In this document: positions 1,871 to 32,300 of the stretch, piece by piece | How the letters are laid out: the number at the start of each line of letters is the position of its first letter | How positions within the stretch are numbered: position 1 is the stretch's first letter | NCBI GenBank assembly: GCA_002422025.1 | Contig: DISV01000005.1 | Coordinates: 51,617 to 115,616, forward strand | DNA: 64,000 nt | Direction: 5' to 3' | From: Patescibacteria group bacterium UBA6201 | Lineage (GTDB): Bacteria > Patescibacteriota > Minisyncoccia > Phycocordibacterales > UBA918 | The notes under the pieces: model-generated | What the model was told of the DNA's origin: nothing | Databases searched by the model: none | Seen by the model: the letters and a program-made list of their open reading frames with translations, nothing else | Program-made: the position numbers and the translations under genes

Positions 1871-2587
1871 CTAAAGAGTGTCTGCAAAAAAACTATTGAG
1901 GCCATTAAACCCAACTTTTTTGTAATTCTTTGCCTTAAAAAATATATCGTGTTCATTACCTGCATTATCTTCTATACAAATAAGTTTTGGCCGAAAAGTA
2001 TTCCAATCATTACTTGTAAGAACTTCTTGGTCATAGCCTTCCGTATCAATTGTCATGAAGTCAATTTGTTTGACCTCAAATTTCTTTAAAACAGAAGAAA
2101 GTTTAAGTACTTCGATTTTTTTCTCTTCAATAATCTCATGTCCTTCTCGAGATAATTTTTCCGCAGTTTCTTTTGAAAAAGTTGACAGTGTATTTACTTT
2201 GCAAATATAAAAAACAATCTTACCTTCGGTGTTGCTTATGCCAATATTTAAATTAATATCTCTTAATCGACTTTTTTCTAACAAATTAAAGTTATTAATA
2301 TCTGGTTCTATATTGATACCATCCCATCCTTTTTCATAGAACCGCTTTGTATTATTGAGATAATTTGGTTGATTAGCACCGATATCGACATAAAAACCTT
2401 TTTTAGGATAATCTAAAAATCTGTCAATAAATAAATCTTCAGCATATTGGCTATATGACATTTTAGGATGATCCTTGTTCAGAAAAAACTCCTTGTATAC
2501 AAAATAACTTTTTCTTAAATAAATTTTAGTTAAAAAAAGAGTTTTTTTGATACCCCATTTTTTTACTTTTAAAAAAAAATTAATCAT
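1871..2587 (-). CDS. FkbM family methyltransferase (likely sugar O-methyltransferase)
   Basis: 238 aa. Motif FYVDIGANQPNY...KGWDGINIEP is typical of the FkbM SAM-methyltransferase domain. Confidence 0.65.
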   Translation of the reverse strand: MINFFLKVKKWGIKKTLFLTKIYLRKSYFVYKEFFLNKDHPKMSYSQYAEDLFIDRFLDYPKKGFYVDIGANQPNYLNNTKRFYEKGWDGINIEPDINNFNLLEKSRLRDINLNIGISNTEGKIVFYICKVNTLSTFSKETAEKLSREGHEIIEEKKIEVLKLSSVLKKFEVKQIDFMTIDTEGYDQEVLTSNDWNTFRPKLICIEDNAGNEHDIFFKAKNYKKVGFNGLNSFFADTL

Positions 2588-2738
2588 AAAGTATGGTTTA
2601 TGTTACCAATATATCTGCAAATACTATTAGAACACATTCAGATTTGAATTCATTAACTTGCTTCAGATAAAAGGGAGATACATATAATTTTACATTTAAC
2701 GTAAATGAGTAGGTCATCGGCCTACTCATTTGATTGAA

Positions 2739-3935
2739 TTATGTTGATGTGATGAATTCGTTAACCGTCTCTTTTACATACTCACGTTGTTCGCTGGTCA
2801 GTCCTTGGTGACAAGCGAAGACCATTCCACCACGCATAACTTGATCAGTATTTGGGTATGTAGTGGAAGCTAGGCGGTGAGGGATATTCTTGAAAGCTGG
2901 TTGCTTCAGTACATTTCCAGTGAAGATTGGGCGGGTTTGGATACCTTTATTCTCAAGGAAGGTCGCAAACTGCTTGCGATTGAAAGGTGCGTCGTCACGG
3001 ATAATAACAGGGAAGGCTAGCCAATTGGTCTCAGTGTTTTCAGTTTGTCGTGGCAGTATAAAATACTTTTCGTAGCGCTTGAAGAATTCCATAAGTTCAG
3101 CGTAATTTTCTTTTCGAGCTTTACCAAATTCTGGTAACTTCTCTAACTGAACGAGTGCAAAGGCAGCTTGAAGCTCTAATGGCAGGAAATTATAACCAAT
3201 CTCGCTGAAAATGAACTTATTATCGTATTCGATTCCGTCCAATTCTACATTAAAGCGGTTTTCAAGAAGCTCTGAGGCAGCATTTTCTCCAAATAATGAA
3301 GAACGACGTCCCCAACCGCGTAAGACCACTAAACGTTCTGCTAATGCAGCATCATGTACCATAATCATCCCGCCGCCGCCAGCACCGTTAATGATGTGTG
3401 AACCATAAAAGCTGGTGGTAGTGATGTGCGAGTAGCTACCAGTAGGTTTACCTTTATAAAGGCCACCCAAGGTGTCGCAGGAATCCTCAACTAACCATAA
3501 CTTGTGTTTATCGGCAATTTCTCTAAGAACCTCTAAGTTAGGAATGTTTCCAAGAAGAGACGGAATCATTAAAACTTTAGTCTTTGGTCCAATAGCCTTC
3601 TCGACAGCTTCAGGATTGACGATGTAAGTATCTGGGTCGATGTCGACGAAGATTGGTATTAGACCCTTCTGGATTATTGGAGCCACCACGGTACCAAAAG
3701 TCAAAAGAGGAGTAATAACCTCATCTCCTGTTTTTAAATCCATTATCTCAAAAGCCAGCAGGTTGGCAGAGGAGCCTGAATTAACCATTATGCCGTATTG
3801 CTTACCGAATAGTGCAGATACCTTTTTTTCAAAAAGGTCAGCTTTGGGTCCAAGGGCAGTATTACCTTTTAATACTTCAACCACTGCGTTTATTTCTTCT
3901 TCACCATGTACTGATTGAGCGTATGATACTTTCAT
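2739..3935 (-). CDS. ddhC: CDP-6-deoxy-D-xylo-4-hexulose 3-dehydrase (E1), DegT/DnrJ/EryC1 PLP/PMP-dependent family
   Basis: 398 aa. Shows the DegT-family fold (VNSGSSANLL, poly-Gly GAGGGGMIMV). It is divergently adjacent to rfbG and rfbF, the classical ddhABC arrangement. Confidence 0.7.
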   Translation of the reverse strand: MKVSYAQSVHGEEEINAVVEVLKGNTALGPKADLFEKKVSALFGKQYGIMVNSGSSANLLAFEIMDLKTGDEVITPLLTFGTVVAPIIQKGLIPIFVDIDPDTYIVNPEAVEKAIGPKTKVLMIPSLLGNIPNLEVLREIADKHKLWLVEDSCDTLGGLYKGKPTGSYSHITTTSFYGSHIINGAGGGGMIMVHDAALAERLVVLRGWGRRSSLFGENAASELLENRFNVELDGIEYDNKFIFSEIGYNFLPLELQAAFALVQLEKLPEFGKARKENYAELMEFFKRYEKYFILPRQTENTETNWLAFPVIIRDDAPFNRKQFATFLENKGIQTRPIFTGNVLKQPAFKNIPHRLASTTYPNTDQVMRGGMVFACHQGLTSEQREYVKETVNEFITST

Positions 3936-4081
3936 ATGCGTAATAGAGTATAGTATTTAAATCAGCCCAGCAAGCTGAGATGATGTTATAAAGGGGAAAG
4001 AACCTTCCTTCTTAAACAACATATTAATTACCAAACAACAAGATGTGATGTTCGTTGGCGCTCTGTTATCAATACTATTGA

Positions 4082-5188
4082 ATGAATAAATTTTCTATGG
4101 ATACGACTAAATTGGCAAATTTTTATCACGGTAAGACGGTGTTAATAACTGGTCATACTGGTTTTAAAGGTTCTTGGCTATCTCTTGTATTGATTGGTAT
4201 GGGCGCTAAAGTTGTAGGTATCTCTCTTCCTCCAAAGACTTCGAAAGATATCTTTGTAGTAACTGGTCTTGAGTCGCAAGTCTCACATCACGAGTTCGAT
4301 ATACGAGATTTTGAGCAATTGTCTACCTTATTCTCCGCAGAGAAGCCAGACGTCGTCTTTCATCTCGCTGCTCAACCTTTAGTTCGTCAAAGCTATCTAG
4401 AACCTTTGGAGACATTCACCACTAATGTGACCGGAACCGCGAATGTTATGGAAGCCCTTCGTCTTTCACACAGTATTGGGTCAGCTGTAATTATTACGAC
4501 TGACAAGGTCTATGAGAACCGTGAATGGATTTATGGTTATAGAGAAAATGATTCATTAGGTGGACATGATCCGTATAGTGGTAGTAAGGCAGCGGCAGAT
4601 ATTGTTGCAGATTCATATAGAAAATCTTTTTTCTCTCCTGAGAAATATAATGAAACACATAACACACTAGTGGCCACAGCGCGCGCCGGCAACGTCATTG
4701 GTGGGGGAGACTGGTCACAAAACCGCTTAGTACCAGATATTATGCGGGCAGTATTTGAGGGTGATGGAATTGTAACTCTTCGTAATCCTGAGTCTACAAG
4801 ACCTTGGGAGCACGTGCTAGAATCTGTTTCGGGTTATCTCATTTTAGGTATGCGTCTTGGTGAAGGTGATAAAGGGGTGTCTGGCAATTGGAACTTTGGT
4901 CCAAGCTCAGAAGCTTTTATATCGGTAGGAGAGGTGACTAGCAAAACGTTAAATTTTCTTGATAAAGGGACTATGAAGATAGAACGTGACGATACCAAAC
5001 ATGAAGCTAATGAATTAGTCCTTGATGTTACTAAAGCTAACCGTTTGCTCGGTTGGTATTCTAAGTGGAGTATTGATGAAACTCTATTAAAGACAGCTGA
5101 GTGGTATCGGATTACTAATGACGATCCATCATCAGCACTTGCAGTGACTAATCGTCAAATAGAAGAATATTTTTATTTCCAAAAATAA
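4082..5188 (+). CDS. rfbG: CDP-glucose 4,6-dehydratase
   Basis: 368 aa. N-terminus FYHGKTVLITGHTGFKGSWLSLVL is the signature start of RfbG/DdhB, an SDR-family enzyme. Confidence 0.85.
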   Translation: MNKFSMDTTKLANFYHGKTVLITGHTGFKGSWLSLVLIGMGAKVVGISLPPKTSKDIFVVTGLESQVSHHEFDIRDFEQLSTLFSAEKPDVVFHLAAQPLVRQSYLEPLETFTTNVTGTANVMEALRLSHSIGSAVIITTDKVYENREWIYGYRENDSLGGHDPYSGSKAAADIVADSYRKSFFSPEKYNETHNTLVATARAGNVIGGGDWSQNRLVPDIMRAVFEGDGIVTLRNPESTRPWEHVLESVSGYLILGMRLGEGDKGVSGNWNFGPSSEAFISVGEVTSKTLNFLDKGTMKIERDDTKHEANELVLDVTKANRLLGWYSKWSIDETLLKTAEWYRITNDDPSSALAVTNRQIEEYFYFQK

Positions 5189-5192
5189 ACCT

Positions 5193-5966
5193 ATGAAAAT
5201 AGTCATTTTAGCTGGAGGACTTGGTACGCGCATTATGGAGGAAACTAATGTTAGACCTAAACCAATGGTCGAAATTGGTGGAATGCCAATCCTTTGGCAC
5301 ATAATGAAAATTTATTCTCATTATGGATTTAACGACTTTGTAATCTGTCTTGGCTACAAAGGTGAATATATCAAAGAGTGGTTCTCACTCTATAACCTTC
5401 GTCAGAATGATGTAACCTTTGATTTTAGTGCTGGTAGTATGAAGATTCATGATGGTATCAAGGAACCATGGAAGGTGACTTTGGTGAATACTGGTGCCGA
5501 TACGATGACTGGGGGCAGGTTACTCCGACTTAAGGAACTAATTGGAAGTGAGAGATTCATGATGACTTATGGTGATGGGGTAGGTAATGTGGATATTCAA
5601 AAATTACTAGAGCATCATGAAAAGGGCGGAAAGTTGAGTACTGTAACAACTTTTATTCCAGGCGGACGTTTCGGTGTGGTAGAAATAGACGACAGTAATC
5701 AAGTGACGGCTTTTAGTGAAAAGACTGATAATCAAAAGAGAATCAATGCTGGTTTTTTTATTCTTGAACCTAGGGTATTTGATTATTTAAAAGATGGTGA
5801 TGCAACTATTTTTGAGCAAGAACCCCTAAAGACCTTGGCAAATGAAGGGCAGCTAATATCCTATCCACACGAGGGATTTTGGCACCCAATGGATACACTG
5901 AGCGATAAGCATAAACTTGAGGAAATGTGGAGATTAAACCAGGCACCTTGGAAGGTATGGGAATAG
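5193..5966 (+). CDS. rfbF: Glucose-1-phosphate cytidylyltransferase
   Basis: 257 aa. MKIVILAGGLGTRIMEETNVRPKPMVEIGGMPILWHIM matches RfbF/DdhA. It starts 4 nt after rfbG. Confidence 0.85.
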   Translation: MKIVILAGGLGTRIMEETNVRPKPMVEIGGMPILWHIMKIYSHYGFNDFVICLGYKGEYIKEWFSLYNLRQNDVTFDFSAGSMKIHDGIKEPWKVTLVNTGADTMTGGRLLRLKELIGSERFMMTYGDGVGNVDIQKLLEHHEKGGKLSTVTTFIPGGRFGVVEIDDSNQVTAFSEKTDNQKRINAGFFILEPRVFDYLKDGDATIFEQEPLKTLANEGQLISYPHEGFWHPMDTLSDKHKLEEMWRLNQAPWKVWE

Positions 5967-6020
5967 AAGCTTCATCTACACTTTATCTTTACTTGTTATG
6001 GTTGTATTATTTAATTTATA

Positions 6021-6782
6021 ATGGATTATAAAACGTTAGCAAAAGAAGCTCGGATTGCAGTTTTAGGCATGGTGCATAAAGCACAGCTATCGCACATAGC
6101 CTCTAATTTTAGTGTGATAGATATTGCAACGGTTCTCTATGAGAATGTAAATCTTGCAAAAGATAGGGTTGTTTGGTCTGCAGGCTGGAAAGCGGCTACT
6201 GTTTATTACTTTTTAAACAAGAAATCCATCCTATCCGATGAACAACTAGCACAGTTTCCCAACGCTCCATTTTATGGGTTAGCTGAAACGGAAGTTCCCG
6301 GCGTGGAGGTTAATGGCGGATCAATGGGTCACGGACTTTCAGTATCGGTAGGTATGGCTCTTGCTAAGAAACGTTCAAAAGAGGAGGGTATTGTCTACTG
6401 TATTCTCTCGGAAGGTGAACAGAATGAAGGGTCGGTATGGGAGGCTGTAATGATGGCGTACCACCATACTCTAGATAATCTAGTTGCAATTATTGACGTC
6501 AATAAGATTCAAGCTACTGGCTTCACAAAAGACATTCTTAATCTTGAGCCTTTGGAGGATAGGTGGCGCGGTTTTGGATGGGACGTTGTACGTATAGACG
6601 GACATTCTTATGTCGAAATTGAGTCAAGTTTGAAAAAAAGCTCGGGTAAACCGAAAGTTATAATTGCCGACACTATAAAAGGTAAAGGGGTAAGCTTTAT
6701 GGAAGGATTGCTTCTGTATCACTATAAGAGTCTCGATAATGAAACCTATAATAAGGCACTAAGTGAATTACAAAATGACTGA
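6021..6782 (+). CDS. Transketolase, N-terminal (ThDP-binding) subunit of a split transketolase
   Basis: 253 aa. ThDP-binding features (GHGLSVSVGMALAKK; HTLDNLVAIIDVNK). Its 3' end overlaps the next gene. Confidence 0.75.
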   Translation: MDYKTLAKEARIAVLGMVHKAQLSHIASNFSVIDIATVLYENVNLAKDRVVWSAGWKAATVYYFLNKKSILSDEQLAQFPNAPFYGLAETEVPGVEVNGGSMGHGLSVSVGMALAKKRSKEEGIVYCILSEGEQNEGSVWEAVMMAYHHTLDNLVAIIDVNKIQATGFTKDILNLEPLEDRWRGFGWDVVRIDGHSYVEIESSLKKSSGKPKVIIADTIKGKGVSFMEGLLLYHYKSLDNETYNKALSELQND

Positions 6783-7275
6783 AAAACAACCACCACAATT
6801 AAGAAAGGTATTTATAGACACCTTGACGGAGCTTGCTACAAAGGATCCAAAAGTAATTTTGATTATTGCAGATGTAGGATATTCGTATTTTGAATCTTTT
6901 GCTGAGAGATTTCCTAATCAATTTTTAAACGCAGGGGTAGCTGAACAAAACATGATGGGCATGGCAGCTGGTATGGCAAGAGAGGGCTGGAAACCTTATG
7001 TTTATACAATGAGTAATTTCGTCCTGCTTAGACCGTTTGAACAGGTTCGAAATGATATATGTTACGGAAAAGCAAACGTTAAGCTTGTTGCTGTGAAGGG
7101 CAGCACTTCTTATAAATTCTATGGCATGAGCCATAATTTAGTAGAGGGAGAAGAGAAAAATCTACTAAAATTCTTACCGAATTTAAATCATTTTTTCCCC
7201 TTGTCTGATGGGGAACTCAGAAAGCAAATTAATGAAGAGTATTCTCGATTTGGGCCAGCCTATTTTTCTCTGTAG
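6763..7275 (+). CDS. Transketolase, C-terminal (pyrimidine-binding) subunit, short form
   Basis: 170 aa. Pyr domain (FLNAGVAEQNMMGMAAGMAREGWKPYVYTMSNF). GTG start overlaps the upstream subunit. It lacks the usual C-terminal regulatory domain. Confidence 0.65.
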   Translation: MNYKMTEKQPPQLRKVFIDTLTELATKDPKVILIIADVGYSYFESFAERFPNQFLNAGVAEQNMMGMAAGMAREGWKPYVYTMSNFVLLRPFEQVRNDICYGKANVKLVAVKGSTSYKFYGMSHNLVEGEEKNLLKFLPNLNHFFPLSDGELRKQINEEYSRFGPAYFSL

Positions 7276-7287
7276 CCTCTAGTCTAA

Positions 7288-8223
7288 ATGAACAAGCTTA
7301 AAAAAAACAGCGTAGCTATCTTGGGGGTGACTGGATATATTGGACGCGCTCTTTTGAATGAAATCCATAATAATCCTGAATGGGAGGTTGTTGGATATTC
7401 GCGAGATGTTGATGCTGCTATAAATACTTTAGCAAGTTACAACGTGTCCCATGGTGACATCAAAAATTATGAAGAGTTACTAGATAACAAGTACGATGTG
7501 CTTGTTAACGTCACTGGAATCGGTAGCCCGAAAAAATTACATGAAGACCTCGGAGCGGTATTTGCGGTGACGGAAGAGATGGATAGGGTTGTTTTTCAAT
7601 ATTTAGATAAATATCCAGATACTAGAACTTTTAACATCTCATCAGGAGCGGTATATGGTATATCTTCTGGTGATTACGTTGGGCCGAATTCCATAGCCAC
7701 TTTCGCTGTTAATTCGCTCAATTTAAGAGACAGTTATGCTTTAGCAAAGCTTCATAGTGAAGGTAAACATCGTGCAAGAAGTCAATCTTCCATAGTAGAT
7801 TTACGTGTATTTGCTTTTGTGAGTCGATATTTAGATGCCTCTGATTTATTTTTAATTTCTGAGATTGCACATTCTTTGAAGAAGAAAACCTCACTAAAGA
7901 CAAATTCAGTCGATTTGGTGCGTGACTTCACTACGGCGGGCGATCTTGTAGCTGTATTAAAATTTCTGGTGGGCAGAGAACCTGTAAACGATGTTTTTGA
8001 TATGAGGAGTAAAGAACCTCTATCCAAGTTAGAACTTTTACACAAATTAAAAGAGGAGTTGGGATTGACTTTTGAAGTAGAGGAGATGAATGATTCTAGT
8101 CCGACGGGCGTTAAAAATGTGTATGCGCCAACAGAGAGTCGGCTGGAATCACTAGGATACTCACCTCAATACAGCTCGACTGAAAGCGTTATGTCTGAGC
8201 TCAAGGCGTTTCTGACTCTTTGA
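7288..8223 (+). CDS. NAD(P)-dependent epimerase/dehydratase-family (SDR) protein; putative CDP-4-keto-3,6-dideoxyhexose reductase (RfbS/RfbJ-like)
   Basis: 311 aa. Rossmann motif AILGVTGYIGRAL. Its position after the ddh genes suggests the terminal reductase; that specific function is an inference. Confidence 0.5.
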   Translation: MNKLKKNSVAILGVTGYIGRALLNEIHNNPEWEVVGYSRDVDAAINTLASYNVSHGDIKNYEELLDNKYDVLVNVTGIGSPKKLHEDLGAVFAVTEEMDRVVFQYLDKYPDTRTFNISSGAVYGISSGDYVGPNSIATFAVNSLNLRDSYALAKLHSEGKHRARSQSSIVDLRVFAFVSRYLDASDLFLISEIAHSLKKKTSLKTNSVDLVRDFTTAGDLVAVLKFLVGREPVNDVFDMRSKEPLSKLELLHKLKEELGLTFEVEEMNDSSPTGVKNVYAPTESRLESLGYSPQYSSTESVMSELKAFLTL

Positions 8224-9541
8224 TTTTCTTTAGACGTACAATAAGTATGAATGGCAGAGCCAATAAAGTGTAAGAAATAAATGTGGACCATGCAGCACCT
8301 ACGATTCCATATTTTGGTATTAAGTATAGGTTTAGAAGTATATTTAATACGGCGGTAAGAAACGAGGTTACAAAAATCAATACCTTTCGATTCTCCGCAA
8401 TAAGGAAGAAGCGAGTCACTATATCTAGAGAGGCCCAAATTCCTGTCCATACATATATGACGAAGACTGTAGCGCTTGCTGCAAAAGCTGGACCATAGAG
8501 TAATACCATCAATGGTCCAGCCAATAGTGAAGCTGGTAAAGCTACCAGTATTCCTGAAAGTACCATAAACCCTGATAGGATAATTAATCGTTTCTTATAC
8601 TCATGAACACCGACAGATTTTGCGTTGATTATTGCTGGAAAAAGAGACGAGGCTATTATAGCTGGAATGAAAAGCCAGACTTCTGCGATTCTTACCGCTG
8701 CGTCATATAAGCCTACTGCTGAACTGTCTACTAAAGGTTTTAACATTACTTGATCGATGCGAGCATAAATAGTGGAAAATGCGGCAATAAAAATGAAAGG
8801 CCAAGAGTCTTTAAGGAGTTGAATAGCAATAGTTTTGTTAAAACGCCAAGCAAATAGGTTTCCGTAATGTTGAGTTCGAATATGAACGAGCAAGGTAGCA
8901 TATAGTGCTGCCTCCAACAATAAGATCACTCCTATGTACACTACACCTTGACCGAAAAAGATAACTATTAACTTTAAAATGTTTAATGTCAGCGAAACTA
9001 TCAGAGTTATGATGGATGTATATTTCTGAGCCACATCAGCTTGGAATTCATAGCCAATTATGTTGAAAGCGTTAAAGATGAAAGTGCCGGCAAGTGTGAG
9101 TATGACCATACGTGACACGTCATCCTTGGATAATAAAAAAGCAAAGATTATCGTCAGGCTTGTGGCCAGTACTCCAGCAAGCAATTTAAGTACAAAAGCT
9201 GAACCCAGATATTCGTTGCGTTGTTCTGGATATTTAATTAGGTCGCGATAGAGTATGTTGTCTAATCCTAAGGAAGCTATGATAGAAAATAACCCAATAA
9301 AAGAAATAGCATAGCTTAGTTGTCCGTAGTTCTCCGGACCAAGGTAACGGACAAGATAGATGGCTACAAAGAAAGCAATAACTGTATTGATAGTACGAAC
9401 AAAAAGTGCCCACAAAGTGTTGGTTGCGTAGCGCTTAAAACCACTACTGTCCCATCGACCGATTAGTTTCATGTAGATCCAATCAGGCAGGATCTTCTTT
9501 AGTAGATTGTTTAGAAAAATAGTCACGTTATTTGAGGCCAT
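8201..9541 (-). CDS. wzx: Polysaccharide biosynthesis protein / Wzx-like O-unit flippase (MOP superfamily)
   Basis: 446 aa with about 12 predicted TM helices. N-terminal region resembles Wzx ([37 protein letters not shown]). Confidence 0.7.
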
Positions 9542-11728: not shown

Positions 11729-11989
11729 ATGTACTACGTTTATATACTAAAAAGCGAAACTTCAGGACTTTGGTATACTGGCACAACCAATGATTTACGG
11801 AAGCGTTTAAGTCTACATAACAAGAAGCAATCGACTTGGACCAAAGGAGGAGTTCCGTGGACATTGATTTATTACGAAGCGAGTTTATCAAAGGAAGACG
11901 CTTTTGCTCGAGAAATTTACCTCAAGACAGGTATGGGTAAGAGGTACCTCAAGAATAGACTCAAATGCTTCCTAACTCTAACGGGATGA
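11729..11989 (+). CDS. GIY-YIG nuclease superfamily protein (UPF0213/YhbQ-like)
   Basis: 86 aa. [30 protein letters not shown] is a GIY-YIG motif. Confidence 0.7.
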
Positions 11990-14199
11990 AAGACTTACTT
12001 AAATGGGTGATGTACGGGGCGGTGTTTACGGTCCCTTTTGTTTTATTGATAGTTTCTGGGTCCATGTTCTTTCCGTTCATTACGGGAAAAAACTTCGCTT
12101 TTAGAATTTTGGTGGAGATTGGCTTTACTGCTTGGGTGCTTTTGATGTTGATTGATCAGGTGTATCGTCCACGTTTGTCATATATATGGTATGCGATACT
12201 CGGTCTCCTGGGCGTAATGTTTATCGCCAATCTCTTTGGTGAATACTCACCAAAGAGTTTTTGGAGTAATTACGAACGTATGGAAGGTTGGGTGACACTA
12301 CTGCACTTCTCAATGTACTTTGTGGTGCTAGGGTCAGCTTTGACTACTGAAAAGCTATGGAATCGCTTTTTTAATGTTGCTTTGGTAGCGGCGGTAATTA
12401 TGTCTCTGTACGCACTTGGGCAGGTATCTGGCGTGACAGAGGTTAGTCAGGGAGCGAATTGGCGAGTAGACGGACGTCTTGGTAACTCCTCATACCTTGG
12501 TGTTTATATGTTGTTCCATATATTCATAGCGGCCTGGTTGCTCATCCGCACCAAGGCGATTAATCTGAAAATTCTTTATGGTGGATTGATCGCGCTTTTT
12601 GTCTTCATTCTGACGCAGACTGGTACTCGTGGTGCGGTGTATGGCTTGATTGGTGGCAGTATTTTGGCCTTCTTGTACTTGGCTATAATGGCGCCAAAGG
12701 GTGCCGCTATTAAAAAATGGGCTCTAGGCGGATTATTGGTTGTGGTTCTTTTGGTCGGGGGGGTGTGGTCTATTCGCGATACGGAGTTTGTGAAGAACAG
12801 TCCAGTCTTAAGTCGTTTTGCCGGCACGACTTTGTCTGAAGGTAATATTCGCTTCATGGTCTGGCAAATGGCTATAGAAGGAGTGAAGGAAAGGCCGATT
12901 TTGGGCTGGGGACAGGAGAATTTCAGCTATGTGTTTAATAAATATTACAATCCGGCACTTTATGGTGCGGAGCCTTGGTATGACCGTACCCACAATATCT
13001 TTTTCGACTGGCTCATTGCTGGTGGGGTATTGGGGTTGTTTGCTTATCTAGCGATACTTATCAGTAGCTTGTGGTATTCGGTACTGCAACCTTTCTATGT
13101 TCGTCTTAAAAATGGTGTTGATACTCATATACATTTCTCTGTATATGAGCAAGCTCTCATTTTGGGTCTTCTGGCAGCGTATATGTTCCATAACTTGTTT
13201 GTCTTTGACAACCTGGCCAGCTGGATTTTCTACGCGGTAGTATTGGCGCTCATTCATAGTCGAGTCAGTTACGAATGGAAATCTATTTCAAGTATTACCT
13301 TTAGTCAGGCTGTCTGGCACAACGTTGTCTTGCCAAGTGGGGCTGTTGTTCTTTTGCTCACGATTTACTTTGTGAACGTCCCATCAATGTTGGCTGCACA
13401 AAATATTATTGATGCTTATCGGGCCACTGGAGTCTCTCCCAAACTAGAGATGTTTGAAAAGGCTTTTAACCGAGGTGGTTTCGCTGACCAAGAAATATTT
13501 GAACAAACCGCTCAGGTTGGCGGGCAACTCTATAGCAATCCTGCTGCCAGTGAGTCTGATAAGGAGGCTATAGTAAATTTGTTTACTAGGTTGGAAGGGG
13601 AGATGATGGCAAAGAAGCCAAATGACGCACGGCTCTACATTGTCGCTAGCAACTTCTATCGAACGATGGGGGATTTGAATTTGACAATGTCGTCTCTCGA
13701 TAAGGCTGAAAAGCTTTCTCCAAACAAACAAGCAATAAAAGAAGAACAAGGTGTCGTATATATGATGGCGGGACGAAGTGAGGAAGCAATTGAACGTTTT
13801 CAAACCGCCTACGAATTAGATGAAAGAAACGAAAGAGGGAAAGTACGTCTAGCGACCGCATATCTTTTTGCTGACAATCAAGCAGAATTTGAGAAGTTGA
13901 TAAACTTAGAGACCCTACATGAAAATCCCGGCCTTCTATCTGTAGTGATAAACGAACCATTGCTCTTGTCGGTTGCTTATCAGAAGAAAGATTACCCTCT
14001 CTTAGAATTCATTACTAAAGAGAGAATCCAAGTGGCACCATCGGAGCAGGGCCTTCGGACTAATTTGGCAGCTTTGTATTTTGAACAAGGTAAGTATGGT
14101 GATGCTAGAACAGTGATAGAAAAGGCTATTGCAGAAATACCAGCCTTCAAGGCTGAAGGTGAAGCGCTATTAGAAGAAATAGATTCGGCCCAAAACTAG
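11986..14199 (+). CDS. O-antigen ligase (Wzy_C)-like polytopic membrane protein with C-terminal TPR-like region
   Basis: Track ORF 11965..14199. The likely start is MKDLL at 11986, where ATGA overlaps the GIY-YIG stop. Multi-TM N-terminal half carries a Wzy_C-like GTRGAVYGLIGG motif. The C-terminal ~250 aa is soluble and TPR-like. Confidence 0.65.
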   Translation: MKDLLKWVMYGAVFTVPFVLLIVSGSMFFPFITGKNFAFRILVEIGFTAWVLLMLIDQVYRPRLSYIWYAILGLLGVMFIANLFGEYSPKSFWSNYERMEGWVTLLHFSMYFVVLGSALTTEKLWNRFFNVALVAAVIMSLYALGQVSGVTEVSQGANWRVDGRLGNSSYLGVYMLFHIFIAAWLLIRTKAINLKILYGGLIALFVFILTQTGTRGAVYGLIGGSILAFLYLAIMAPKGAAIKKWALGGLLVVVLLVGGVWSIRDTEFVKNSPVLSRFAGTTLSEGNIRFMVWQMAIEGVKERPILGWGQENFSYVFNKYYNPALYGAEPWYDRTHNIFFDWLIAGGVLGLFAYLAILISSLWYSVLQPFYVRLKNGVDTHIHFSVYEQALILGLLAAYMFHNLFVFDNLASWIFYAVVLALIHSRVSYEWKSISSITFSQAVWHNVVLPSGAVVLLLTIYFVNVPSMLAAQNIIDAYRATGVSPKLEMFEKAFNRGGFADQEIFEQTAQVGGQLYSNPAASESDKEAIVNLFTRLEGEMMAKKPNDARLYIVASNFYRTMGDLNLTMSSLDKAEKLSPNKQAIKEEQGVVYMMAGRSEEAIERFQTAYELDERNERGKVRLATAYLFADNQAEFEKLINLETLHENPGLLSVVINEPLLLSVAYQKKDYPLLEFITKERIQVAPSEQGLRTNLAALYFEQGKYGDARTVIEKAIAEIPAFKAEGEALLEEIDSAQN

Positions 14200-23363: not shown

Positions 23364-26300
23364 GTGATGTCAGATAGTACAGAGCCTTCAAACGTAGACA
23401 CTTCAAAGTCGACAAAATTCCTTTCCGTCAAAGAGGCGGCCACTGTCTCTTCTTATACTACTGCTCACGTAACAAGGCTCGCTCAAAAGGGATTAATCAC
23501 AGCTGTGCGTGATGGTCGACAATGGCTGATTGATCCAATTTCTCTCCAAAAATTTGTCTGGGATACAGAAGAAAAAAAGAAAGTAAGAAAGGAACAATTA
23601 CGAAAGGAAAGAGTGGAGGAATTGCATTTATCTAGTACTGGACAAACTCTGGAGGATTCCGATGAGGAGTTTTCAATATTTGATGTTAGAACCGCCGTTG
23701 TTTCCGCCGTCTTCACCACTTGTGTAGCATTGTTGTTTTCTCTGGGGAGTGTTTATGATCAAAATGAACAAATCTTTGCTGGTAGTACGGTGGTGTCAGG
23801 AGTAGAGAGGTTATCCTATGATTTTAAGGATAGAGTGCTTCCTCGAACTCGCGACCTTTCAGCCACCACTCTCTTATCTGCTCCGATTGCAACATATTCA
23901 GGAAAAGTATTGGAATCGTTGTGGTGCGATTTGAAATTACTCTGGTACAAAAATGATAGCTGTGGTGCTCCAGCAATCGAGTACGCTATTCTGCCAATCA
24001 TAAATAACCGTGATGCTGACCCCGAGACTAATGTCACAGTTAACAATACTTACATCACTAATCCTGTAGAGAGAGAAGTCGTAGAGCGAGAAATTGTCCG
24101 TGAAGTTTTTGTCCAAGATGGTCAACTTTCTTTTGCTTCATACATAACTCGTACTGAGTACGACAATCAGGTTGATGCCATAATGCGCTCTATCGAAAAT
24201 ATCGACACGAGCGGAGGTGGTGGAGGTACTAGTAATGTTGCCTCTTTAGAGGATCTTTCTGATGTTGCAGCAATGACTGAAAGTACTGGTGATTTGTTAA
24301 TTTGGACCGGTTCGACCTGGAGTAATATTGCCACCTCTTCTTTGGGGATTTCCGGAGGTAGTGGCGCAGTCGATTCGGTCAATGGTCAGACTGGTGTAGT
24401 GGTACTCGATACTGGGGATGTTTCGGAAAATGGCAATCTATACTTCACCAACGCTCGCGCTCGCGAATCCCTTTCATCATCTGCCACCGGTCTTTCGTAC
24501 GCAACTTCAACCGGTGTTTTTAGCTTAACAGCCGGATACACCATTCCACTCACTGCCTCAACGACTGAATGGAGTAATACTACTAACCTCGTCACTGCCG
24601 GCAGCGCTTCTTGGGACGCTGCTGCAGCTAGTACCACCGCTCTTACTCCTAGCTACCTCCGTGGTCTCTTTTCTAACTCTGCCACCGGCCTCACCTATGA
24701 CTCTGGCACTGGCGCGACTTCACTCACATCTGGCTACACTATCCCACTTTTAGCTTCAACTACTGAGTGGGTTACTGCGTATGGGTGGGGGGATCACTCA
24801 CTGCAAAACTACATCCAGCAAAACGACAACGTAGTATTTGGTAATGCCACTACCACTAGCCTGGTGGTTAGTAACAACATCACAACTTCCTTAAACGATG
24901 GTTGTGTGGAAGTTGCTGGTGGCATACTTACCTCTACCGGTTCTAACTGTGGGATTGGTAGTGGGGGAATCACTAGCCTAAATGGCCTCACTACATCTTC
25001 TCAGTCGTTTGCCACTTCCACCTCAGGAGGTCTTGATCTCAGTATCACTTCTAGTAGTGGTGTACACACTTTCACTGCAGGTCTTTCAGCCGGCTACACC
25101 ATCCCACTTTCAGCTTCCACCACCGAGTGGGCCAACACTCGCAATATCGTCAACGCCTCTTCAACCCTCTGGGACACTGCATACAGCTGGGGAGATCACA
25201 GTACCGCCGGCTACCTAACAACCATCGCTTCTTCCACCATTCGCAACATGTTCTCTAACACTGCCACTGGTCTCACTTATGACTCTGGTACTGGCATCAC
25301 TTCATTGACAGCCGGCTATACTATCCCACTTACTGCCTCAACAACTGAGTGGTCAACCACATACGGATGGGGAGATCACAGTATCGCTGGCTACTTAACC
25401 GAAGTCGCCACTACCACCGTACGTAGCATGTTCTCAACTGGTACTGGTCTTTCATATTCAACTACCACTGGAGAGTTTATCAACACCGGTGTCCTTTCGC
25501 TCGGTGGACTAACCGGTGCTGTGGCTACCTCATCTCTCCATGTCTCCACCTCTACATATGCCTTTACGTCCGGTACCTCATCAATCGCTCTTTCACTCGA
25601 TGGATTTAATTCAACAGACTATCTAACGCTATCCGCTTGGTATGCCACCACCACCGACGCTCTTGATGAAGGTCTAAACAATCTATATTTCACCAACGCT
25701 CGCGCTCGTGAATCACTTTCATCATCTGCCACCGGTCTTTCATACGCAACTTCAACCGGTGCTTTTAGCTTAACGGCCGGCTATACCATTCCACTCACTG
25801 CCTCTACGACTGAATGGAGTAACACTGCTAACCTCGTCACTGCTGGCAGTGCCTCTTGGGACGCTGCTGCAGCTAGTACCACTGCTCTCACTCCAGCATA
25901 TCTGCGTGGTCTCTTTTCAAACTCTGCAACCGGTCTTACTTATGACTCTGGTACTGGCGCGACTTCACTTACAGCTGGCTACACTATCCCACTCACAGCT
26001 TCAACGACTGAGTGGGCTACTGCGTATGGGTGGGGGGATCACAGTGCGGTGGGATATCTCGTCTCTGGTGATATCGACACTTCCTCCGAACTACTCACAA
26101 TTGTTTCAGACGAAACCGGCACTGGCTCATTAGTGTTCAACGCTTCGCCAACTTTCACTGGCAACACCACTTTGGCAAATGCCTCTACCACCAACCTCAC
26201 CGTTTCAGGTAACAGCTATCTCGGTACGGTTGCCTCCGGTACCTGGAACGGTACCGACATCGACATCTCTGACTACACCAATCTCTCAGTCACTGCCACT

Positions 26301-29300
26301 GGCCTCTCCCTGTCCGGTGATGCTGTAGCACTCACTGCCGGCTATATTATCCCACTTTCAGCTTCAACAACTGAGTGGTCAACCGCGTATGGGTGGGGAG
26401 ATCACAGTATCGCTGGTTACTTAACCAACATTACTGGTGAATCACTCGAAGACCTGACTGATGTTGCCACAATGACCAAGTCTACTGGTGATCTTCTTTC
26501 ATGGAATGGTTCAAGTTGGACGAATGTGGCTACGTCATCTCTTGGCTTCAATGACCACGACAGTGTCACTCTTGCTGGTGAAAATTATCTATCACTAGCA
26601 ACTCAACAAATCACGGCCAACGCCATCAACCCAGATAACCTAGCATCCGCCGACTTCGGTGACTTCACCTGCAACGGTACTACTTGTTCGTTTGATACTG
26701 ACTCTGTCAGTGACAACGAGATTGATTACACAACAGTCACTCTCAATGACCTAACTTTCGATGTAGGCAACGTTTCGAAGACCGAGTTTGGTTACCTAGA
26801 TGGAGTCACTTCTGCTATACAAACGCAACTTGATTCAAAACTTTCAACTACCACTGCTGCCTCAACTTACTTAACAATCAACAATAATTTATCTGACCTT
26901 GCCTCCACCACTGTGGCCCGCACTAATCTCGGACTTGGTACCGTTGCTCTACTTAACAGTATTGATATCTCTGATAATACCAATCTCTCTGTATCAGCGA
27001 CCGGCCTCTCCCTGTCCGGTGATGCTGTGGCACTCACTGCCGGCTACACCATCCCACTTTCAGCCTCAACCACTGAGTGGTCAACTGCATACGGATGGGG
27101 AGACCACAGTATCGCTGGCTATCTAACCAATATTACTGGTGAATCCTTCTACGACTTAGTTGACACTCAAAGTTCATACACTGCCAACCGTGTTTTATAT
27201 CAAGGCGGAGGAGGTGTGACTGACTCAGCCAACCTCACCTTCGACGGTTCACTCTTCAGTGTGATTGGTACCGCTTCATCTACAAATCTTTTTACTACCA
27301 ATGCCACTACCACCAATATCACTGCTTCAGGTCACGCTACTCTTGCTACAGCATCATCTACTAACTTCACTGTCTCAGGTAACTCATATATAGGTACGGT
27401 TCTTGGTGGTGCATGGCAGGGAAGCGCAATCGGTGTGCAGTATGGCGGTACCGGAGCAAGTACATTCACTGCCGGAGAAATTCTTGTAGGCAACGGTACT
27501 GGAGCCATCACTTCAACCTCAACCGCCAACCTCAAGGCCACTCTTGGACTTAACAATGTAGAAAACACTGCACTCTCTACTTGGGCTGGTTCATCTAACA
27601 TTACTACCCTTGGTACTATCGTTTCTGGTGTTTGGAATGGAACTACTATAGATGTAGCTCATGGCGGCACCGGAGCTACTACTCTCACCGGTCTCCTTTT
27701 AGGTAATGGCACTGGTGCATTCACTGCTACCACCACATTATCTTCTTCTTATATAGAAGATGCTTATGTTCTCAATACTGGCGACTCTATCTCTGGTAAC
27801 CTAACTTTCTCTGGATTAGCCGCTAATATTGTTCTAGGTTCTAACTGGCTTTCAGGCGATGGAGGAGACGAGGGGCTGTTTGTTGATAGTGTCGGTAAAG
27901 TCGGTATCGGGACGGCTTCTCCCACCGCAGCATTATCAATTACTAATGATGGAACATCTGATCTTGATGTCTTGCTTGATAACGGCACAGTTCAAGGAGT
28001 ATTTGAGTTACAATCAAACAGTGTTGCAAGGTTGGGTACCATAACGAATCATTCATTCGAATTCGTAACCAATAACTCTACTCGTTTTAAGGTAACTAAT
28101 GCCGGGAATATTGGTATAGGCTCCACCTCTCCATCATCTAAACTCACTGTTCAAGGTGACACCTGGATTGGTGGAAACATTACTGCCACTGGCACTTTAA
28201 ATATCACTGATCACTCTACTCTAACTACTGCCTCCACCACCAACCTCACTGTCTCAGGTAACAGCTATCTCGGTACAGTTGCCTCCGGTACCTGGAATGG
28301 TACCGACATCGACATTAGCGACTACACCAACCTCTCTGTATCAGCGACCGGCCTTGAACTTTCGGGTGATGCTATTGCACTCACAGCTGGCTACACTATC
28401 CCACTCACTGCTTCAACTACTGCCTGGAACACAGCCTATAGTTGGGGTGACCACAGCATAGCTGGATATCTAACCAATATTACTGGTGAATCACTTGAAG
28501 ACCTGACCGACGTAGCAGCAATGACTAAGTCTACCGGTGACCTTCTTTCATGGAATGGTTCAAGTTGGACGAATGTAGCGACTTCAAGCTTAGGGATTAC
28601 TGGCACTTCCGACGGCGTCGCTTCTTCAAGTGTGGCGTTTTCGGTCCACAAGAATGGGACGAACCAGACAGTGACAGCAAATACATTTACCTTGCTCACT
28701 TGGTCCACCGAAGTCTTCGACACCAACAACAACTTCGACCTCACCACTGAACGCTTCACGCCAACGGTGGCGGGGAAGTATATTGCGACCGTTGCGTCGT
28801 TTTGTAATGACAGTACAACAAATTGCCAAGTAGCAATATATAAAAATGGTGTCTTGTACTCAAAAAATGTGAATGTTGATCCGAATAATACAGGATCTAT
28901 GGTAACTACTATTGTAGACATGAACGGTACCACTGATTATCTAGAAGCCTATGGATATGATGGTGGAGGAACTACTATCTCCGGCGCTGCAGAGGTCACC
29001 TACTTCTCCGGCGCCCTCATTGCTCCAGCTAACGGCCTCGCCGGCGGTTGGTCTAACGACGGCACGCAGTCATACCTCGCCGACTACACCGACCTCGTAG
29101 CTATCGGTACTTCTACTGCCGCCGCAAAGCTCGATGTGTGGGGAAGTGCTGGTTCAACTGACATACTCGGAATTTCTTCAAGTACTGGTTCACGACTCCT
29201 CACTGTGACAAGTAACGGTAATGTGGGGATTGGAACCACCACTCCTTCGTCGAAACTCTCCGTCTACGGTGACGTTCTGCTCGAAGGCTCAAGCCGTTAT

Positions 29301-32300
29301 CTAAACTTCGGTAGTACTGCAGGTACATCAGGCTACGGTATTCGCGACAACGCCGGAACCATAGAGTTTAAAAACTCTGGTGGCTCTTGGACCGGTATTG
29401 GCACGGGCACTGGCAGTACTGGTTCTAGTAGTGTGGCGTTTTCGGTACATAAGAATAGCACTGCGCAGACGGTGACTTCAGCTACTGTCACGCTTCTTAC
29501 TTGGTCTACCGAACTCTTCGACACCAACAACAACTTCGACCTCACCACTGAACGCTTCACGCCAACGGTGGCAGGGAAATATACAGTTACACTTTCAGCT
29601 TTTTGTGATAATGGTACAACAGGTTGTGCGGTCTACATCTATAAAAATAACGTACTTGTAAACCAAGGCTATACTGGGTCAAACGTTGCTACCGGTGTTG
29701 CAGCTGTTACGGCCATTATAGATATGAACGGTACGACGGATTATCTAGAAGCTTATGTATTTAATAATAATGGTACTACCATTAATGGTGGTAAACATGT
29801 CACCTACTTCTCCGGCGCCCTCATTGCTCCAGCTAACGGCCTCGCCGGCGGTTGGTCTAACGACGGCACGCAGTCATACCTCGCTGACTACACCGACCTC
29901 GTTGCTATCGGTACCACTACCGCAGCCGCTAAGCTTGATGTCTGGGGAAGTGCTGGTTCAACTGACATCCTTGGTATTTCATCCTCAACAGGTTCACGTT
30001 TGTTGACACTCACTAGTGGAGGCAACCTCGGTCTCGGCACTACTACTCCGTCATCTAAACTCTCCATCCAAGGAACTGGTAATCTCCTCTCACTCTTCGA
30101 CACTGCCGGCAACTCTATCTTCAATATTGCTTCTGCCACTACATCTACCTCTACTCTAGCTACCAACCTCGCAATCACCGGCAACCTCTCACTTTCTGGT
30201 TCACTCTACGATAGTACTAGCTCTGCTGGTTCTTCAGGTATGGTGTTACAAAGTACTGGTAGTGGAACTCAATGGGTAGCCACTTCATCACTTGGTATTA
30301 CTGGTGGTACTGATGGTGTCGCTTCTTCAAGTGTGGCGTTTAGTGTGCATAAGAATGGAACAAATCAGACTGTGACAAGCAATGTAGAAACTTTGGTGAC
30401 TTGGTCCACAGAAGATTTTGACACAAATAACAACTTCGACCTCTCAACAGAACGTTTTACTCCTACTATTGCAGGTAAATATATAGTCACAGTCGCTGTA
30501 CGGTGCGATTCGGCGACCACCTTTTGTCAGGCACGTCTGAGAAAGAACGGAAGTGGTATATCAACTCGATATGAATATACAGCCGGAGGTGGCACTCCAC
30601 CTACTACAGTTACAGCTACTGTGGATATGAATGGTACGACGGATTACTTGGATGTTATGGCGACAAATAGTGGGGGAACCACAATAAACGGTGGTGCGGA
30701 ATACACATACTTCTCCGGCGCCCTCATCGCTCCAGCTAACGGCCTCGCCGGCGGTTGGTCAAATGACGGTACTCAGTCATACCTCGCCGACTATACCGAC
30801 CTCGTTGCCATCGGTACCACTACCGCTACTGCTAAACTCGACATCTGGGGAAGTGCTGGTTCAACTGACATTCTTGGTATCTCATCCAGTACTGGTTCAC
30901 GACTTCTCACAGTGACGAGTAACGGTAATTTGGGAATTGGAACCTCTTCACCAACATACAAACTTGATGTAGCTGGAGGATATATAAACGTAGATGGTAA
31001 CAGTGGTGGATATAAAATAAGTGGTAACACCATTCTTCAAGCTTCGAGTACTAACTTCAGTACCTTGGTTGGTAATGGAGCTGGTACAGTACTGCAAGCC
31101 ACCGGTCTATACAACACCGCTGTTGGTTATCAGTCATTAAATGTAGCGACTTCTTCTACTTACAACACCGCTGTCGGTTATCAATCGCTCTTCTCTGATA
31201 CTTCTGGTGGTAGCAACACAGCTACTGGTTACAAGGCTTTGTACTCAAACACCACTGGTGGTTTTAACACCGCACTGGGACGAGAATCTCTCTATTCCAA
31301 CACCACTGGTGTCGCCAACACTGCTTATGGTTACAAATCTCTCTATTCCAACACCACTGGTAGTTACAACGTGGCTAGTGCGTATCAAGCTCTACAGTCC
31401 AACACCACTGGTAGTTACAACATGGCCTTGGGACGTCAGGCTCTCTACTCCAACACCTCTGGACAAGGTAATACCGCGGTAGGGTTTAGAACTGGTTACG
31501 GTGACGGGTCTACATTAAATCAACAATCAGTAGTGGATGAGTACATAACATTGATTGGTTATCAGGCTTCTCGTGATGCTTCAGTGGCTTCGACCACCTC
31601 TCTCACTAACAGCGTTGCGATTGGTTACAACGCTAGATTCTTAGCTAGCAACCAAGTAGTGCTCGGTAATGATTCGGTTACTTCCACTTTGTTGAAAGGT
31701 AATGTCAGTATCGGTACCACCACCAACGCTGTAGCTGGTGGCACAGCAGCCTTCTTAAACATTGATCGTTCAAGTGCGGGGGCGTTCGCCGTGGGTACAT
31801 ATATAAATCTCACTACAAGTGCTTCTCATTTTGGTTTTGCTAACCCTAACGGTTTGGTTGGTACTATTAACACTTCTGCTTCCGCCACCACCTACAACAC
31901 CACTTCCGACCGTCGTACCAAGGAAAATATTACCGAAACCGTACTCGGACTCGATGCCTTAATGCAGCTACCAATACGTGACTTCTCATTCATTAAAGAT
32001 ACTACCCACGCTACAACCTCCGGCTTCATCGCGCAGGAGTTATATGAAATATTCCCTTGGGCAGTCTCAACCAACGGTGACAATGGTATTGACCCACTTA
32101 CCGGCACCAGTACTCCTTGGTCAGTGGACTATGGTCGAGTGACTCCACTCATTGCTCGGGCAGTACAGGAATTGAATTTGAAACTAGAAGATTTGGCCAC
32201 CACTAGCTTGTATGCCGATTTGGAAGCTGATTCATTTACTAAGAGTTTCTTCGATAAACTCATCGCTTGGTTTGCTGACGCTACCAATGGTATTGAGAAC

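Follow-up and report, generated by a model that had tools for sequence, protein, structure and literature searches.

Carbon-branched deoxysugars shape antigenicity and antibiotic activity, and the two-carbon (C2) branches known so far are installed by thiamine diphosphate (ThDP) enzymes of either the acetolactate synthase type (YerE) or the keto-acid dehydrogenase type (PMC12247030). In yersiniose biosynthesis, YerE adds a pyruvate-derived C2 unit to CDP-4-keto-3,6-dideoxyglucose and YerF then reduces the product (PMC9306805). The 3-dehydratases E1 and SpnQ depend on a [2Fe-2S] cluster and a reductase, whereas ColD works with neither, hydrolysing its intermediate and regenerating pyridoxamine 5'-phosphate (PMP) from glutamate (PMC8987622). 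For branching by a transketolase-type enzyme there is only a proposal, concerning two Streptomyces antibiotics, and no demonstration (PMC12247030). We describe here a 64,000-nucleotide stretch (the window) of contig DISV01000005.1 from Patescibacteria group bacterium UBA6201, where genes for an RfbH-like DegT-family protein, RfbG, RfbF, the two halves of a split transketolase-like enzyme (TK-N and TK-C) and an extended short-chain dehydrogenase/reductase (SDR) stand together in a surface-glycan locus (Table 1). From the sequences we consider it somewhat probable that this locus follows the logic of yersiniose biosynthesis to a C4-branched CDP-3,6-dideoxyhexose, with two non-canonical enzymes in place of familiar ones. 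Gene identities apart, the functional assignments below draw on sequence and genomic context.

The strongest evidence in this analysis comes from the slot between rfbF and the SDR gene. The SDR belongs to a small family of 76 members, and in all ten contexts inspected its gene lies directly behind that of a ThDP enzyme, within a cassette that also has rfbG and rfbF. A transketolase pair precedes the SDR in three of these contexts (the window together with its identical contig L001, L004 and L088), and in the other seven (L086, L087 and L089-L093) an enzyme of about 600 aa with the acetolactate synthase fold and TPP_enzyme_N/M/C domains. The L087 enzyme, the one of the seven that was tested for likeness to YerE by PDB match, scored 362 bits with JanthE (8RPH) and 271 bits with PpYerE (5AHK), against at most 247 bits with acetolactate synthases. 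In L092, gene order is conserved with that of the window and the encoded proteins are close to their counterparts here (RfbH 90%, RfbG 77%, RfbF 81%, Wzx 65%, Fcl 82% and Gmd 75% identity), and an aminotransferase and a YerE-like enzyme occupy the exact slot held in the window by TK-N and TK-C. Such non-homologous replacement in a conserved slot argues that the transketolase pair does the job of YerE. The analogy with YerE and YerF drawn in a preliminary description of this DNA thus gains comparative support, with SDR homologues always found behind a ThDP enzyme and YerE-like enzymes in the place of the pair in near-orthologous loci. The swap likewise favours its suggestion that a C2 unit is transferred to CDP-4-keto-3,6-dideoxyglucose; that this unit be glycolaldehyde, as was also suggested, is not required, the donor-hydroxyl-binding His being replaced by Leu. 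In two of the sister loci (L089 4256-7999, L090 4221-7999) the gene of the YerE-like enzyme is flanked by genes for an unannotated 255-aa protein, a DJ-1/PfpI protein and a HAD phosphatase, with no aminotransferase, which suggests a different donor supply and hence a different branch.

The SDR has a GxxGxxG motif starting at G13 and a Ser119-Tyr150-Lys154 triad. Its AlphaFold2 model (pLDDT 94) finds its best PDB fold match in the Campylobacter jejuni CDP-6-fructose reductase (8V4G/8V4H; TM-score 0.79-0.84), and NCBIfam returns nothing beyond weak ArnA-like and UDP-xylose-synthase-like matches. An extended nucleotide-sugar SDR with a Ser-Tyr-Lys triad shares its fold with C4 ketoreductases, and on this ground the end product might instead be an unbranched CDP-3,6-dideoxyhexose, the SDR serving as a C4 ketoreductase of the abequose or paratose synthase type and the transketolase pair making, for example, a C2 acyl or ketol substituent or a non-sugar precursor. 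Genes typical of the ascarylose route do occur in related loci: beside the dehydratase gene, L004 (5335-5940 and 4451-5338) and L093 (118-762) have genes for an RmlC-like cupin (dTDP_sugar_isom) and another SDR, which suggests an additional ascarylose-type branch (5-epimerase plus reductase) and rapid module exchange at the locus. Yet the NCBIfam matches of the SDR are only the weak ones just named, and its position directly behind the ThDP enzyme holds in ten of ten contexts, among them those with YerE-like enzymes, known to branch CDP-4-keto-3,6-dideoxyglucose, which would be left with no YerF-type reductase. We therefore judge an unbranched product unlikely, although it is the alternative that survives best. 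In place of the RmlC-like and SDR genes of L004 and L093, the window has an FkbM methyltransferase and a glycosyltransferase.

The branching reaction would need a 3,6-dideoxy acceptor, and the second non-canonical enzyme is the one that would supply it. The RfbH-like protein matches Yersinia E1 in the PDB (3BB8/3BCX) with 262-265 bits, as against 171 bits for ColD. The preliminary description had asked whether it might really be a generic DegT aminotransferase; its His180, however, aligns with His220 of Y. pseudotuberculosis E1, where aminotransferases have Lys. It departs from E1 in the Fe-S region, which reads WGRDCYCAPGCDNTCKKRF in E1 and WGRRSSLFGENAASELLENRF in the RfbH-like protein, the latter's 'wgrrsslfgenaasellenrf' lying opposite 'wgrdc--ycapgcdntckkrf' in the alignment. 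Of the E1 [2Fe-2S] motif (C193-X57-C251-X1-C253-X7-C261) it retains the counterpart of C193 alone, as C153, and its only other cysteine is C375; cysteine count and alignment together indicate that three of the four cluster ligands are missing. Among the best 150 cluster representatives at 50% identity, at least 148 have His in the His column (the other two have a gap there), and the Fe-S cysteines are absent in 81, including about the 20 closest. A Cys-less dehydratase of the His type is also found in every related Patescibacterial locus and in a Nitrosopelagicus locus bearing a YerE-like enzyme. Judged from these sequences, loss of the Fe-S site is a trait of the clade and not an accident. 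One relative, P0253 (813 aa), is a canonical E1 homologue whose Fe-S motif is interrupted by about 400 inserted residues, in the order DWGRDC, an insertion ending in VAVHN, and then CWCATGVSNTCGKRF; an insertion that starts after a Cys and ends in His-Asn before a Cys bears the hallmark of an intein that splits the site of cluster binding.

The RfbH-like gene adjoins the CDP-glucose genes divergently and has no GDP-4-keto-6-deoxymannose or colitose context. As already remarked in the preliminary description, the usual partner of E1, the E3 reductase (DdhD/AscD), is not in the window: neither an E3-like CX4CX2C...C ferredoxin motif nor an FNR-like motif turned up in any reading frame of the 64 kb, and no E3-type reductase was seen in the related loci inspected. 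We infer, by analogy, that the RfbH-like protein works as ColD does but on a CDP substrate. E3 is probably absent because an E1-like protein lacking the Fe-S cluster does not need it, and is unlikely to be merely encoded elsewhere in the genome. Should such a protein deoxygenate C3 incompletely, the transketolase might act instead on CDP-4-keto-6-deoxyglucose, an enamine or another intermediate and so give a branched 6-deoxy sugar. L088, with a long-form transketolase pair, RfbG, RfbF and SDR and no intact DegT gene called, would fit such a route, and according to a review (PMC8987622) no CDP-specific 3-dehydratase lacking Fe-S has been characterised. ColD nevertheless proves that 3-deoxygenation of the His type works without Fe-S (PMC8987622), the His-type DegT protein is kept at 75-90% identity across the sister loci, and it accompanies YerE-like enzymes, whose known substrate is a 3,6-dideoxy-4-keto sugar (PMC9306805). 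Incomplete deoxygenation is accordingly, in our estimate, quite improbable.

TK-N and TK-C had been described as the two halves of a transketolase. Their matches to Transketolase_N and Transket_pyr uphold this, with the qualification that the C half has only 166 aa and that the Pfam search found no Transketolase_C domain in it. The best PDB matches of both are to the split transketolase of Carboxydothermus hydrogenoformans (6YAK, 163 bits, for TK-N; 6YAJ, 96 bits, for TK-C). TK-C aligns with residues 36-190 of the 341-aa 6YAJ chain, and since the alignment stops at residue 190, the end of the pyrimidine-binding (Pyr) domain, domain III is missing. Read from the alignments, H26, a Lys, H66, H100, D155, N185 and H261 of the Escherichia coli enzyme correspond to H25, A54, W56, L87, E131, N161 and H234 of TK-N, and R358, E411, H461, D469, H473 and R520 to R10, E57, K108, Y116, H120 and S165 of TK-C. 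The pair thus keeps the cofactor Glu (E57), the counterparts of His26, His261 and His473, Arg358 (R10) and the Mg-binding Asn (N161), and has substitutions at His66 (Trp), His100 (Leu), the GDG Asp155 (Glu), His461 (Lys), Asp469 (Tyr) and Arg520 (Ser), with the loss of two of the three phosphate-binding residues and of the aldose-binding Asp. Judged by this signature the pair is not a pentose-phosphate enzyme.

The truncation of TK-C is a real feature of its family, given that all 120 listed of 430 homologues (E <= 1e-10) have short C halves of 158-197 aa, that TK-C is identical on independent assemblies, and that its dN/dS against L004, about 0.08, indicates purifying selection (TK-C alone gave a value, dS being saturated for the other five of the six genes); a pseudogene or an assembly artefact is rejected on the same grounds. 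Loss of His461 and Asp469 is common to nearly all members of the wider family from 80 genomes, with L046 alone keeping an Asp at the Asp469 position, whereas a short clade found among Patescibacteria, monophyletic in a neighbour-joining tree of TK-N, is set apart in the residue table by having lost both His66 and His100. That tree holds a single canonical reference fragment, used as outgroup, and does not place the family relative to housekeeping transketolases, so the residue signature was used for this instead. His100 is the residue that binds the C1-OH of the donor. In the Geobacillus stearothermophilus transketolase, the exchange H102L at this position was made to shift donor use from hydroxypyruvate towards pyruvate (PMC11997939), and the Leu found here hints, at the level of sequence, at pyruvate rather than a hydroxylated ketol.

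The same residues bear on a further alternative, a CDP-alditol or CDP-ketose route resembling that to CDP-6-glucitol in C. jejuni, in which a ketose phosphate formed by the transketolase would be activated by a cytidylyltransferase and the resulting CDP-ketose reduced by the SDR. The best PDB matches of the SDR, by sequence as well as by fold, are indeed to the NADP-dependent CDP-glucitol-forming reductase of that organism (8V4G/8V4H), and in the Prochlorococcus locus L072 an RfbF homologue stands directly before a transketolase pair with no RfbG homologue detected. But RfbF and RfbG of the window exceed the equivalog cut-offs for CDP-glucose enzymes, the phosphate- and aldose-binding residues named above are lost from the transketolase, a 3-dehydratase of the His type is conserved alongside, and sister loci replace the transketolase by YerE-like enzymes, which make no ketose phosphates; we hold this route to be very improbable. 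That the halves are a housekeeping pentose-phosphate transketolase present in a glycan locus by chance is scarcely credible and is rejected on residue and context grounds, for although their best PDB match is a genuine split transketolase and the related short pairs of L006-L009 have housekeeping genes as neighbours, the residues equivalent to His66, His100, His461, Asp469 and Arg520 are all substituted, domain III is gone, the pair sits tightly inside the operon between rfbF and the SDR gene, it is swapped for a YerE-like enzyme in near-orthologous loci, and homologues occur in sugar cassettes on phage genomes. The doubt raised in the preliminary description, whether these might be ordinary pentose-phosphate transketolase halves, can thus be laid aside, sugar-phosphate residues having been lost and the family adjoining nucleotide-sugar 4,6-dehydratases and DegT enzymes. 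All these alternatives are weakened by the residue signature, by the operon structure and, above all, by the swap with YerE-like enzymes.

The branched CDP-3,6-dideoxyhexose that we favour would arise as follows. RfbF would form CDP-glucose and RfbG would convert it to CDP-4-keto-6-deoxyglucose, both steps being assigned by equivalog-level profile matches. The Fe-S-less E1-like protein would then remove the C3 hydroxyl by the ColD route, which dehydrates and hydrolyses the PMP-sugar adduct, draws on glutamate to restore PMP and has no need of E3, to yield CDP-4-keto-3,6-dideoxyglucose. A TK-N/TK-C heterodimer would take a C2 unit from a 2-oxoacid or ketol donor as a ThDP-bound carbanion and, as the cassette swap suggests, add this unit to the C4 ketone to give a tertiary alcohol with an acyl branch, an acetyl branch at C4 if the donor is pyruvate. 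The SDR, by its context a putative YerF-like enzyme, would reduce the branch carbonyl, leaving a yersiniose-like 1-hydroxyethyl branch with pyruvate as donor or a 1,2-dihydroxyethyl branch with a hydroxylated one, and glycosyltransferases, the FkbM methyltransferase, Wzx and Wzy would install the sugar in the surface glycan.

Several points weigh against this pathway. Acceptance of a ketone or a nucleotide sugar has not been demonstrated for any transketolase (PMC12247030). In TK-N, Trp56 takes the position of His66, which binds the ThDP diphosphate, and Glu131 that of the GDG Asp, so that ThDP binding could be altered. The nearest solved structure to the SDR is a CDP-fructose reductase, and the SDR of L004, the closest transketolase-bearing relative, is only 45% identical, which indicates that the module has been shuffled. 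The RmlC-like and SDR genes of L004 and L093 imply that an ascarylose-type route to an unbranched sugar can draw on the 4-keto-3,6-dideoxy intermediate as well. Finally, the short pairs of L006-L009 (Staskawiczbacteria and relatives) are situated among housekeeping genes, outside any glycan locus.

Beyond the Patescibacteria, the arrangement RfbF-RfbG-(His-type DegT)-TKN-TKC with a full-length C half is found in Lachnospiraceae, Oscillospiraceae, Wallbacteria, Sedimentisphaerales, Schleiferiaceae, Cyanobium and Proteobacteria; the single dehydratase inspected directly, that of Lachnospiraceae L027, carries the canonical CxC...C motif. A two-gene transketolase stands beside NDP-keto-sugar genes in at least 12 RfbF-linked loci, at least 10 PglF-linked loci and several phage loci, and in Saccharibacteria a short pair lies between genes for a PglC-like transferase, a Lys-type DegT aminotransferase and a PglF-like 4,6-dehydratase. 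The closest relatives of TK-C (60-70% identity) are on contigs that all measure 36-42 kb; of these, 14 are IMG/VR loci (L096-L109). In the three examined, where the TK-C relatives show 66-68% (two contigs) and 57% identity (an IMG/VR viral contig), the pair adjoins a Polysacc_synt_2 dehydratase and a Lys-type DegT enzyme. Genes for an exonuclease, an Erf/Rad52-like single-strand-annealing protein and an endolysin are present on the viral contig L096, whose sugar cassette comprises TK-N, a short TK-C, a Polysacc_synt_2 4,6-dehydratase, a Lys-type DegT enzyme, a GATase, methyltransferases and a glycosyltransferase. Phages thus appear to carry the short transketolase as an auxiliary sugar-modification gene; a search of GenBank phages with TK-N gave only distant matches, in unannotated or bacterial-looking records. 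The common denominator of the sugar cassettes in which the pair occurs is an NDP-4-keto-6-deoxy sugar. Aminotransferase-type tailoring of a branch carbonyl has been mentioned (PMC9306805), and one may speculate that the Lys-type DegT neighbours act as aminotransferases on the branch carbonyl.

The short pairs of L006-L009 (for example, L009 9154-10504), with a C half of 186 aa and the same Trp and Leu substitutions, neighbour genes for a cupredoxin, Fur, superoxide dismutase and ribonucleotide reductase. Long-form members of the family have a third context (L053, L061, L070, L074, L085 and some 20 further loci from Geobacter, Nitrospirota, Planctomycetes and Omnitrophota), a conserved cluster with three to four radical-SAM proteins, including one that binds B12, along with a heptosyltransferase-like GT9 protein, SAM methyltransferases, a TylF-like methyltransferase and an RmlD-like reductase, which looks like an uncharacterised glycan-tailoring system.

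Tentatively, as an idea that in our view falls a little short of probable, we put forward the short split transketolases, with only the pyrophosphate-binding (PP) and Pyr domains and with Trp and Leu at the His66 and His100 positions, as a new class of ThDP enzymes for C-branching of nucleotide sugars, interchangeable with YerE, with which Patescibacteria, and phages of about 40 kb with related sugar cassettes, would build tertiary-alcohol branched deoxysugars, fed in the present locus by an Fe-S- and E3-independent CDP-specific 3-dehydratase. If so, the surfaces of candidate phyla radiation (CPR) bacteria would display yersiniose-like or new branched 3,6-dideoxyhexoses.

The six genes announced in the preliminary description are all confirmed at their positions by strong profile matches (Table 1), although rfbG precedes rfbF and not the reverse. 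The transketolase and SDR genes do lie downstream of rfbF as claimed. The operon is tight, but the translational coupling ascribed to these genes holds only between the two transketolase halves, where TK-C starts at ATG 6775, in an 8-nt overlap with the TK-N stop (TGA 6780-6782); spacers of 4 nt separate rfbG from rfbF, 54 nt rfbF from TK-N and 12 nt TK-C from the SDR gene. The RfbH-like gene, from which rfbG diverges, forms one minus-strand operon with the FkbM methyltransferase gene downstream, whose product may be a tailoring enzyme, and the gene for a GT4-type glycosyltransferase. On the other side, wzx converges on the SDR gene with a 23-nt overlap, and its flippase product marks the region as a Wzx/Wzy-type surface-glycan locus; beyond the SDR gene the locus holds genes for Wzx, GDP-fucose synthase, GDP-mannose dehydratase, a Wzy_C-TPR protein, MurB and SecA. 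The G+C content is 0.33-0.40 in the first 8 kb and 0.41-0.49 over the remaining window. A promoter and terminator scan of 2500-8600 gave counts equal to the shuffled expectation.

Table 1. Coordinates of the genes discussed (window positions, except in the last row, where they refer to the contigs named), with strand and profile matches.
Feature	Coordinates	Strand	Profile match
GT4-type glycosyltransferase, accessory	578-1867	minus	Pfam Glycos_transf_1 1.6e-10
FkbM-family SAM methyltransferase	1871-2587	minus	Pfam Methyltransf_21 8e-23; TIGR01444
RfbH-like DegT-family protein, 398 aa	2739-3935	minus	Pfam DegT 5.9e-81; NCBIfam RfbH 359 bits, cut-off 423
rfbG (RfbG/DdhB), CDP-glucose 4,6-dehydratase	4082-5188	plus	TIGR02622 equivalog, 445 bits vs cut-off 278
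rfbF (RfbF/DdhA), glucose-1-phosphate cytidylyltransferase	5193-5966	plus	TIGR02623 equivalog, 372 bits vs cut-off 300
TK-N, transketolase-like ThDP enzyme, PP-domain half, 253 aa	6021-6782	plus	Pfam Transketolase_N 3.5e-26
TK-C, transketolase-like ThDP enzyme, Pyr-domain half, 166 aa	6763/6775-7275	plus	Pfam Transket_pyr 7e-23 only
Extended SDR, 311 aa, putative YerF-like branch-carbonyl reductase	7288-8223	plus	Pfam Epimerase 1.5e-16
Wzx-type flippase	8201-9541	minus	Pfam Polysacc_synt 2.2e-32
Wzy_C-TPR protein	11965-14199		
TK-C relatives on contigs of 36-42 kb	L094 7001-7477; L095 7001-7501; L096 7998-8504		

Two further open reading frames (ORFs) of the window deserve mention. An 86-aa ORF at 11729-11989 (plus strand), between the GDP-mannose dehydratase and Wzy_C-TPR genes, has a counterpart in the identical contig L001 that matches a GIY-YIG nuclease domain, and may be the remnant of a mobile endonuclease. 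A 3120-aa ORF at 23364-32726 (plus strand), with C1q and Peptidase_S74 (endosialidase intramolecular chaperone) domains near its C terminus, looks like a giant tail-fibre-like or surface fibre protein; the G+C content of its region, 0.48-0.49, is above that of the glycan locus.

The replacement of a YerE-like enzyme by a minimal transketolase (253 + 166 aa) in otherwise orthologous cassettes amounts to a natural experiment, and provides a concrete and small candidate for transketolase-type branching; if it does branch sugars, it would offer biocatalysis a compact scaffold for making chiral tertiary alcohols. The locus points, moreover, to a large uncharacterised clade of Fe-S-free E1-like dehydratases, and to CDP-3,6-dideoxy sugars made without a dedicated reductase. 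It also suggests that genome-reduced CPR bacteria invest in an elaborate and rapidly exchanged surface-sugar chemistry.

In the literature searched, nothing relevant was found on transketolases with rfbF/G/H or O-antigen gene clusters, and there is no description in it of a short split transketolase, interchangeable with YerE, from Patescibacterial surface-glycan loci and phages. Closest in logic is the yersiniose A pathway of Y. pseudotuberculosis, which comprises DdhA, DdhB, DdhC (E1), DdhD (E3), YerE and YerF (PMC9306805), and with which the locus has in common a cytidylyltransferase, a CDP-glucose 4,6-dehydratase, a PMP-type 3-dehydratase with the active-site His, a ThDP enzyme and then a reductase, in the window the putative YerF-like SDR. 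The two differ in that the ThDP enzyme of the window has a split and truncated transketolase fold whereas YerE is a flavoprotein of the acetolactate synthase fold, and in that the E1-like protein of the window lacks the [2Fe-2S] cysteines and has no E3 with it there. The YerE-like enzymes of Patescibacterial and Nitrosopelagicus cassettes (the JanthE 8RPH and PpYerE 5AHK type; L086, L087 and L089-L093) fill the same slot between rfbF and the SDR family, and their cassettes share with the window the Fe-S-less dehydratase and the flanking Wzx, Fcl and Gmd genes; they are nonetheless of a fold unrelated to that of the pair, and their cassettes, unlike the window, carry donor-supplying partners, either a class I/II aminotransferase or the 255-aa protein with DJ-1/PfpI and HAD proteins.

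The split transketolases of miharamycin and amipurimycin biosynthesis are likewise encoded by two genes in a sugar-tailoring cluster, with a ketone as proposed acceptor (PMC12247030), but they belong to actinomycete secondary metabolism, while the pair described here belongs to a cell-surface glycan locus, lacks domain III and has additional active-site substitutions. In the same source, only 13 split-gene transketolases proposed for keto-sugar branching are reported, all from Streptomycetes and none characterised in vitro (PMC12247030). With ColD, the GDP-4-keto-6-deoxymannose 3-dehydratase, the RfbH-like protein shares a His in place of the pyridoxal 5'-phosphate (PLP)-binding Lys and the absence of an Fe-S cluster and of a reductase partner (PMC8987622), although it is nearer to E1 (262 versus 171 bits) and stands in a CDP-glucose rather than a GDP-mannose context. 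Lastly, the classical and split transketolases (6YAK/6YAJ) and the window pair share the PP and Pyr domains as well as the cofactor Glu, the Mg-binding Asn and residues equivalent to His26, His261 and His473, whereas the pair has no C-terminal domain and bears Trp, Leu, Lys, Tyr and Ser in place of His66, His100, His461, Asp469 and Arg520, so that its sequence, despite the transketolase fold, sets it outside EC 2.2.1.1 in both domain architecture and substrate-binding residues.

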